This document shows positions 23,357 through 23,431 of a stretch of 64,000 nucleotides of DNA, piece by piece. Position numbers and translations under genes: made by a program. Position 1 is the stretch's first letter. Each line of letters starts with the position of its first letter. Source of the stretch: Myxococcota bacterium (GTDB lineage Bacteria > Myxococcota_A > SURF-8); contig CAXXQS010000002.1 of the NCBI GenBank assembly GCA_963674735.2, positions 1,088,001-1,152,000 of the forward strand, given 5' to 3'. The notes under the pieces are model-generated. The model did not search any database. It was not told where the DNA came from and saw only the letters and a list, made by a program, of their open reading frames with translations.

Positions 23357-23431
23357 GGAGCGTTTCGGAGCATCGTAGAGCTTGCGGGAACCCGCAGGAG
23401 CGTGGGGGAGCGCCAAGGAGCGCAACGGAGC
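23357..23431. repeat. Eight GGAGC-like pentamers phased at exactly 10 bp
   Basis: GGAGC at 23357, 23367, 23397, 23407, 23417, 23427; AGAGC at 23377; GGAAC at 23387; variable 5-nt spacers. Confidence 0.9.

Follow-up and report, generated by a model that had tools for sequence, protein, structure and literature searches.

A helically phased repeat array at the promoter of a gene transfer agent-like head-tail cluster in a Myxococcota bacterium, a putative docking track for an oligomerising regulator

What does a run of evenly spaced short motifs do when it stands directly against the promoter of a phage-like gene cluster? The question is raised by a 64,000-nucleotide stretch of the genome of a Myxococcota bacterium of the SURF-8 lineage (the window; assembly GCA_963674735.2, contig CAXXQS010000002.1, positions 1,088,001 to 1,152,000). 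Here, an array of eight 10-bp units on the minus strand (23357..23431) lies between a host acyltransferase gene and a head-tail cluster that resembles a gene transfer agent (GTA). The genome of this window, designated G000, comprises 5.26 Mb in 3 contigs with 55-57% G+C, and coordinates without a prefix are window positions. We propose that the array is a DNA-level, promoter-coupled docking track for an oligomerising DNA-binding regulator; judged from the sequence and its relatives, this proposal has somewhat better than even chances of being right.

On the plus strand, the pentamers of the array begin at 23357, 23367, 23377, 23387, 23397, 23407, 23417 and 23427 and read, in that order, GGAGC, GGAGC, AGAGC, GGAAC, GGAGC, GGAGC, GGAGC and GGAGC. 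The period is exactly 10 across the whole array, and the 5-nt spacers (gtttc, atcgt, ttgcg, ccgca, gtggg, gccaa and gcaac) are unrelated to one another. Read promoter-ward on the minus strand, the corresponding 6-mers are CGCTCC four times, then GGTTCC, AGCTCT, TGCTCC and CGCTCC, extending from roughly -37 to -116 relative to the predicted start. Tandem Repeats Finder detects only the last 2.6 units, and we therefore regard the element as a motif array with free spacers and not as a slippage repeat. The initial annotation had described eight phased GGAGC-type motifs that did not arise by slippage and that end at a TTGAAA box. This description stands in each part: six of the eight pentamers are exact, AGAGC and GGAAC are each one base off, the steps are 10 bp throughout, and the minus-strand hexamer at 23351-23356 directly adjoins unit 1. 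Its further statement that the motifs recur at exactly one helical turn is right about the exact 10-bp spacing, but a relaxed B-DNA turn takes about 10.5 bp, so that 10.0 bp is slightly less than one turn.

Although GGAGC occurs 4931 times in the G000 genome, the best period-10 chain of this pentamer genome-wide is this very array, with six exact copies in eight phased slots. The triple GGAGC-N5-GGAGC-N5-GGAGC is found three times in the forward and never in the reverse orientation, and the genome read backwards as a control gives none in either. Two of the three triples lie within this array, and the remaining one belongs to a second array elsewhere in the genome, of the class described below as loci 2 and 3. 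Over the 90 nt upstream of the -35 hexamer, self-identity at lag 10 reaches 0.56, while the other lags give 0.21-0.40, the lag-20 harmonic excepted; none of 2000 shuffles attains 0.56 at any lag. A chance origin of the array is thus excluded.

We checked whether the same arrangement recurs in relatives. A BLAST search of the region against 40 relatives matched the coding part of the acyltransferase alone. The layout was readable in five lineages whose large terminase subunits (TerL) are 57-63% identical, namely G000, G003, G004 and the metagenome contigs L025 and L026. As G003 carries a tandem duplicate of the module, these lineages offer six copies of the cluster promoter. The common order is the acyltransferase gene (in G000, G003, L025 and L026), eight or nine units at 10 bp, a TTG-type -35, a 17-bp spacer and the -10, then 7 nt, AAG, a hairpin with a T-run, the Shine-Dalgarno sequence and ATG of a small gene, and TerL. 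From the array end to the ATG of the small gene, the distance is about 100 nt in all five. In register with the promoter, G000 shows eight units (CGCTCC five times, TGCTCC, GGTTCC and AGCTCT) before TTGAAA-17-TTGAAT, L025 nine GC(N)CC-type units before TTGTGT-17-TTAGAT, the last of them, GCTCC, adjoining the -35, and L026 nine TGTAnn units before TTGCAA-17-CTATAT. G003 shows eight YG(A/C)(A/C)CG units before TTGATT-17-TTGAAT, and there the array, promoter, leader and terminator are duplicated in tandem ahead of the small terminase-like gene (L018 ~660-1040). In G004, four units are clear (GCTCC, GCTGC, GCTGC and GCACT), and they hold the same register behind a weak -35, TTTCTT.

In seven arrays, two from G000 and five orthologous ones, the lag-10 identities were 0.56, 0.51, 0.45, 0.46, 0.39, 0.59 and 0.54, with shuffle P values of 0, 0.0005, 0.03, 0.011, 0.07, 0 and 0, respectively. 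Lag 10 was the top lag in all seven, tied with or second only to its lag-20 harmonic. The spelling of the unit drifts by transitions (CGCTCC, TGCACC, TGTATC, TGCTGC; YG(A/C)(A/C)CG in G003), and, G003 aside, transitions link all the words to a shared Y-G-Y-W-Y-C. The distance between the -35 and a G in the unit is nevertheless identical in every lineage. Because the word drifts while the position of this G is fixed, the constraint appears to act on a phased site rather than on a sequence. Conservation upstream of orthologous clusters, which the initial annotation had named as a check, is thereby found for the period, the eight to nine units and the -35 register, with the spelling free to drift.

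The array accompanies the cluster rather than the acyltransferase gene, since G001 has the acyltransferase but neither a detectable TerL nor an array, and the G004 cluster lies away from the acyltransferase yet carries the array. Behind the G004 acyltransferase gene there are still some phased units of a TGCTGC-like spelling, together with a promoter-like remnant akin to that of the cluster (L006, G004:C1 ~29200-29500). An insertion sequence-like gene of 392 codons lies upstream of the relocated G004 cluster (L015 2053-3231). In the distant clusters of G002 (L022) and G005 (L020), we find (C)GGCAG direct repeats spaced 21, 20, 11 and 10-11 bp that stop 5 nt before TTGCAA or TTGCGG; by this layout, they are a phased array with another spelling, in a cluster lineage that is further removed. 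Among 80 viral contigs with a distant TerL (25-33% identity), two related ones carry a lag-10 array, TTTAAAAGGG three to four times at a 10-bp period, about 1.5 kb upstream of TerL (L090 and L098, ~1480-1530). As this makes only 2 of 80, the layout is not general for this TerL clade.

The promoter that the array adjoins is equally well kept. Its -35-like hexamer, TTGAAA (23351..23356, minus strand), has a TTGnnn hexamer in the same place in five of the six orthologous promoter copies, that of G004 being TTTCTT. Within the 17-bp spacer lies a G-rich block, GGGGGGAAGA (23340..23349, minus strand), and a GGGGnGA-like block is present in all six copies (window; L018, L015, L025 and L026). The block is a candidate loading site for an antiterminator-like factor. 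A TG-extended -10 follows at 23328..23336 on the minus strand (TGT and TTGAAT, the latter at 23328-23333). The six copies read TTGAAT, TTGAAT, TTGAAT, TTCTAT, TTAGAT and CTATAT at this element, all 17 bp from the -35, and five of them carry TG at -15/-14.

Transcription is predicted to start near 23320 (AAGCC), 7 nt past the -10, where the cluster promoter copies have AAG and L026 has ATG. This would give a short leader of about 50 nt (23272..23320, minus strand). The leader contains a hairpin (23278-23301) followed by a T6 tract (23272-23277), an arrangement that looks like an intrinsic terminator and lies directly before the ribosome-binding site; the Shine-Dalgarno sequence CAGGAG and the ATG (at 23256) of the first cluster gene occupy 23254..23267 on the minus strand. 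A hairpin with T5-8 recurs in all six copies, with predicted folding energies of -17 to -29 kcal/mol and differing stem sequences. The leader terminator is absent from the list of a simple terminator scan.

Is the array confined to the cluster? We built a position matrix from the eight units only, with the -35 excluded, capped it for missing units and summed it over eight slots at period 10. This locus scored 62.9, and two further sites stood out, locus 3 (C2:978394-978463) with 37.8 and locus 2 (C2:1983659-1983735) with 34.7. The next best site scored 23.2, the reversed genome reached at most 19.3, and the maxima for periods 7, 8, 11 and 13 were 17-20; at periods 9 and 12, coding repeats dominate. 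Though the matrix is blind to promoters, each of the two added arrays stops right at a -35-like box. A genome scan for (GGAGC-N5)n had been suggested in the initial annotation as a way to the regulon; in the event, this array came out on top, and the period-10 matrix added the other two, each at a TTGA-type -35.

The locus 2 element is a phased GCTCC array (array and gene, G000:C2:1982609-1983735; L014 6607-7740) that ends in GCTCC and then TTGATT-16-TATGCT. The gene 66 nt beyond it encodes a protein whose N-terminus is MuF-like and which contains an AHH nuclease domain, and this toxin gene is followed by three tandem open reading frames (ORFs), one of which matches Imm11. The array at locus 3 is weaker (G000:C2:978394-978520; L126 ~3395-3520), with the units CGCGCC twice, GACACC, GACTCT, CGCTTC and CGCTCC twice. 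It ends in CGCTCC and then TTGACC-17-TACAAT-7-AAGGAG, a near-consensus promoter, and precedes an FMN_bind/Fer4_5 gene and a Memo-AMMECR1 gene. In G003, a degenerate pattern scan gave nine matches, of which six are the two cluster arrays; the three others compare with two in the backwards control, and two of these three, when inspected, were followed by no -35. By this sequence reading, only the two cluster arrays appear convincing in G003. Toxin homologues in G005 have no arrays, and the MuF-domain genes of G003 (three) and G006 (six) stand behind the portal genes of other prophages, again with no arrays.

Because of the helical phasing, the fixed promoter register, the drifting word and the reuse at three promoters, we favour a DNA element that acts together with RNA polymerase. 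A protein-binding array filled cooperatively on one face of the helix predicts that the period, the number of units and the -35 register are conserved while the spelling drifts, and the comparison of lineages supports this. In our model, an oligomerising DNA-binding protein would fill the track cooperatively on one helix face, and the filled track would set initiation at the promoter driving the GTA-like head-tail cluster. The specificity of the regulator would drift along with its few sites. Transcripts would start about 7 nt past the -10 and meet the intrinsic terminator some 25-50 nt later, just before the ribosome-binding site. As a conserved leader terminator precedes the ribosome-binding site, a second control tier is suggested, in which full expression would also need read-through or antitermination.

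As to the sign of regulation, we lean modestly towards activation over repression, because a contiguous row of one-turn units up to the -35 resembles OmpR-type and class I/II activator sites, and because the -10 has no A at -11, where one is usual. Repression by spreading over the -35 is possible, and the consensus promoter of locus 3 would fit repression better.

Several observations weigh against the docking-track proposal. A search with PF12728 (HTH_17), other winged helix-turn-helix families not being searched, gave 15 matches in the genome, none of them near the cluster or the arrays. Eight to nine contiguous units are more than most transcription factors use, and they equal the number of subunits in small-terminase rings. 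Over 80 bp, an exact 10.0-bp period would hold to one helix face only on overwound or wrapped DNA and drifts off it on relaxed B-DNA. The G004 array is weak (lag-10 identity 0.39, P 0.07, -35 TTTCTT), and the sister family f2 (G006 and G009; TerL about 51% identical) has a different conserved upstream region, with neither array nor hairpin. The orthologues of the locus 3 gene in G001-G004 show no lag-10 signal (0.33-0.39), and the toxin-gene homologues in G006 have no array. Moreover, the start site, the promoter and the termination are all predicted. The initial annotation had offered a cooperative one-face array for a regulator; its DNA-level nature, its tie to the -35 and its conserved phasing are borne out, and the 10.0-bp period departs slightly from the relaxed helical turn. 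Two further observations concern these comparisons. The locus 3 orthologues keep their promoter (TTGACA-17-TACAAT in G001, G003 and G004; TTGACA and TAAACT in G002). The f2 upstream block (L019 in G006, L021 in G009) contains in G006 a TGGCACG-N4-TGCA motif that resembles a sigma-54 promoter.

The small gene that the array precedes makes another reader conceivable. It encodes a 149-aa small terminase-like protein (22807..23256, minus strand), so named from its position and architecture, and its 3′ end overlaps the start of TerL. In the AlphaFold2 model, an N-terminal four-helix domain resembling a helix-turn-helix (HTH), with a predicted local distance difference test score of 86, is followed by a long helical hairpin and a disordered tail. 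The protein has no sequence match in Pfam, PHROG or PDB, and only four matching unnamed proteins among 5.8 billion. With the whole model and with the N-domain, Foldseek returned no match at E<=1, and the only match in a wide VIA-align search was to the helical hairpin, a generic fold (Z<=7.1). Conservation is lowest in the N-domain, with 17-33% identity, and higher in the C-terminal half. Comparing the putative recognition helix with the word across five sequences revealed no clean pattern of co-variation. Since there is no sequence or structural match to any solved small terminase, the small-terminase label is unproven and would rest on position and architecture.

If the label is right, the array could be the wrapping site of a ring of this protein, with one HTH per unit; it would then be a packaging (pac)-like start, and the transcriptional effect would be autoregulation. 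Small-terminase rings have eight to eleven subunits, and eight or nine units would suit one unit per ring subunit. The array always precedes the small terminase-like gene, in the five lineages and, as (C)GGCAG repeats (10/11/20/21 bp), in G002 and G005. The modelled N-terminal HTH-like domain, helical hairpin and disordered tail are the layout of a small terminase, and the variable N-domain would fit co-drift with the word. Precedent is offered by phage SPP1, whose pac region has direct repeats that cover promoters and the beginning of the gene for the small terminase; in such a ring, adjacent HTHs are separated by roughly one turn of B-DNA, and a length of about 100 bp could suffice to wrap it (PMC4737164). 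The same source, though, describes the SF6 DNA-binding domain as a weak and non-specific binder of the repeats (PMC4737164). Two of the three G000 arrays, moreover, precede non-packaging genes (MuF-AHH toxin and FMN_bind/Fer4_5), and all three stand at the -35 in exact register, of which a pure packaging site has no need. G000 and L025 share the GC(T/A)CC word and differ in the putative recognition helix, and the protein matches no solved small terminase by sequence or structure. We therefore hold the ring for a tentative alternative with a minority chance, one that agrees with a transcriptional role should the ring also act as the regulator. A periodic upstream element with no dedicated binder, which would shape the DNA by curvature or anisotropic bendability or contact RNA polymerase like an extended UP element, appears quite unlikely. 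Helical periodicity with a drifting word is also expected under a constraint on shape, and the arrays lie directly at the -35 of three promoters. Within the genome, however, the word is sharply defined (six exact pentamers, three loci) and it changes between genera, which is typical of a specific reader, and the known UP elements are A/T-rich and span about 20 bp, which counts against an element of that kind.

Two further alternatives, which take up the Rho and CsrA suggestions of the initial annotation, place the function in RNA, and neither is well supported. As minus-strand RNA, in the 3′ untranslated region of the acyltransferase transcript, the array could be a Rho-loading site or a track for an RNA-binding oligomer that insulates the cluster. 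It does lie between co-directional genes at loci 1 and 2, and the sense strand is pyrimidine-rich in all seven arrays (50-60 of 90 nt), with C exceeding G in each (37-39 versus 17-26 in five of them, marginally in L026 with 19 versus 16). A Rho utilisation site would be about 80 nt of unstructured RNA, rich in C and poor in G, and would require no particular word. Against such a site stand the near-parity of C and G in L026, the invariant G in each unit and the sense-strand repeats of a sister lineage, G002 and G005, where GGCAG makes them G-rich. In every lineage the array holds its register to the conserved -35, 17-bp spacer and -10, locus 3 has no co-directional gene closely ahead, and an intrinsic terminator is already present after the array. 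Taken together, these features make an RNA-level role very improbable. Scarcely credible is a GGA-rich small RNA from the plus strand that would sponge CsrA. G000 does have one CsrA gene (PF02599, 79 bits), and the plus strand of the array holds eight GGA. Sponges of the CsrB/RsmZ kind carry many conserved GGA motifs on a transcript of their own. The GGA is unconserved here, however, with 8 and 5 in the two G000 arrays versus 2, 0, 1, 3 and 1 in the orthologous arrays. We saw no promoter for this on the plus strand and no terminator after the array, where transcription would run antisense into the acyltransferase gene, and a permissive Rfam search of 22800-24000 returned only terminator-like partial matches below the gathering scores.

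How does the array compare with known systems? Phased direct-repeat operators as such are of a known kind. Tandem half-sites of the OmpR/PhoB type (F1-F3 at ompF) are contiguous 10-11-bp direct repeats located at about -40 to -100 and ending at the -35, where they are read head-to-tail by a winged-helix activator; there are usually two to six of them, and eight to nine units here. Apl of phage 186 binds cooperatively to seven direct repeats of 6 bp, set 10-11 bp apart between promoters, bends the DNA and regulates the promoters (PMC7498355). Apl, Cox of phage P2 and recombination directionality factors (RDFs) such as RdfS likewise share with our locus direct repeats of about 6 bp, one helix turn apart and near phage promoters, and the Apl/Cox arrays have five to seven contiguous repeats that are cooperatively bound and regulate transcription (PMC7498355, PMC3936717, PMC11963761). 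At least three short direct repeats one turn apart mark such arrays; there are eight here and eight to nine in the orthologues. Unlike ours, theirs are found either at the attachment (att) sites of integrating phages or between their early lytic promoters and lysogenic ones, with the gene of the cognate small winged helix-turn-helix protein nearby. Here, we found no integrase, no att site and, with PF12728 as the winged-helix family searched, no RDF gene, and the array, of eight to nine units at a strict 10.0-bp period, is upstream of the -35 of structural genes.

The pac region of SPP1/SF6 also has direct repeats in the promoter region before the small terminase gene (PMC4737164), and in five lineages our array likewise falls in the promoter region ahead of the small terminase-like gene. 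SPP1 differs in having three different repeat sets of about two copies each, which reach into the gene (PMC4737164), whereas eight to nine equal units end at the -35 here and the array also occurs before two non-packaging genes. The control region as a whole resembles in its logic that of the Caulobacter GTA, which combines activation with antitermination by means of GafY, IHF and GafZ: an upstream activator site lies at about -120, an element between the -35 and the -10 loads the antiterminator, and a terminator needs read-through (PMC11150451). The parts differ in kind. Caulobacter has one GafY site and an IHF site in place of a phased array, its spacer element is a palindrome and not a G-rich block, and its terminator, three 150-bp repeats, follows the first gene, whereas a single hairpin precedes the first gene here (PMC11150451). 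No GafYZ relative turned up in our genome, where no search was aimed at one. What is new at our locus is the eight to nine contiguous units at a strict 10.0 bp, the fixed junction between the last unit and the -35, and the combination with a terminator in the leader. Also new are its position before an undescribed, vertically inherited Myxococcota head-tail cluster and the same track at a MuF-nuclease toxin operon. Among the listed matches from the literature on gene transfer agents and Myxococcota, judged by their titles and abstract openings, there is no such element.

The cluster itself spans about 17 kb on the minus strand (6263-23256). TerL (21492..22817, minus strand) was recognised by Pfam Terminase_3 (2.8e-13) and PHROG 2 (1.3e-34). 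The rest of the head-tail genes (6263..21482, minus strand; Pfam/PHROG matches) are collinear in two other genera. After TerL come a portal-sized ORF and a scaffold-like ORF, then the major capsid protein (18502-19413), tail proteins (one at 14908-16152) and a 1119-aa fibre-like protein (8723-12082), all on the minus strand, down to about 6263. Pfam and PHROG matches over 6263-23256, where many ORFs are unannotated, are to structural and terminase genes only, as is characteristic of GTAs, with no replication, integration or lysogeny gene recognised. The head-tail cluster contains no MuF gene. Upstream, the acyltransferase gene (PF01553; 23476..24177) ends 45 nt before the array and, like the cluster, lies on the minus strand.

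The distribution of the cluster is restricted. With TerL as the query at E<=1e-30, we obtained matches in 7 of the 9 other genomes of the order and in none of 391 further genomes sampled from the phylum; of the seven, G002, G005 and G008 are distant, with 31-48% identity. In G003 and G004, which belong to other genera (TerL 63%), 17 and 16, respectively, of the 20 ORFs tested from the window keep their order, with 78-82% identity in the capsid protein. An acyltransferase gene is the shared upstream neighbour in G000, G003, L025 (TerL 62%) and the A+T-rich L026 (TerL 57%), as expected of vertical inheritance at a fixed chromosomal place. Given the collinearity, the shared upstream neighbour and the order-restricted TerL distribution, the cluster shows the pattern of a candidate domesticated, vertically inherited GTA-like element, as known here from its genes.

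Elsewhere in the window, a gene for a sigma-54 enhancer-binding protein with FHA and GAF domains (1888-3672, plus strand) lies a few kb past the distal end of the cluster. There are also 15-bp tandem repeats at 49595-49792 (13.2 copies) and 26521-26654 (8.9 copies), with 92% matches, that may be coding.

The regulators of domesticated phage-like particles are known in detail for only a few Alphaproteobacteria. Here, the whole control region is readable from the sequence, as a docking track, a promoter, a spacer element and a leader terminator, and its natural variants (word drift, a tandem duplication and a relocated copy) are ready-made mutants. The array offers a direct handle with which to fish for the regulator. 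It also permits a test of whether one repeat serves each small-terminase subunit, a model not yet decided for pac phages. With the same array at the operon of a MuF-nuclease toxin, one can also test whether making particles is linked to delivering the toxin. At its most far-reaching, and this we consider a long shot, the eight to nine units would be a one-to-one track for the HTHs of a small terminase-like ring that both switches the promoter and marks the start of packaging, in a targeted, weaponised GTA-like system. As the track also stands before the MuF-AHH nuclease toxin operon and one metabolic operon, the particles would then be expressed together with a toxin anchored by MuF, and perhaps carry it, or would take up selected chromosomal loci for packaging.

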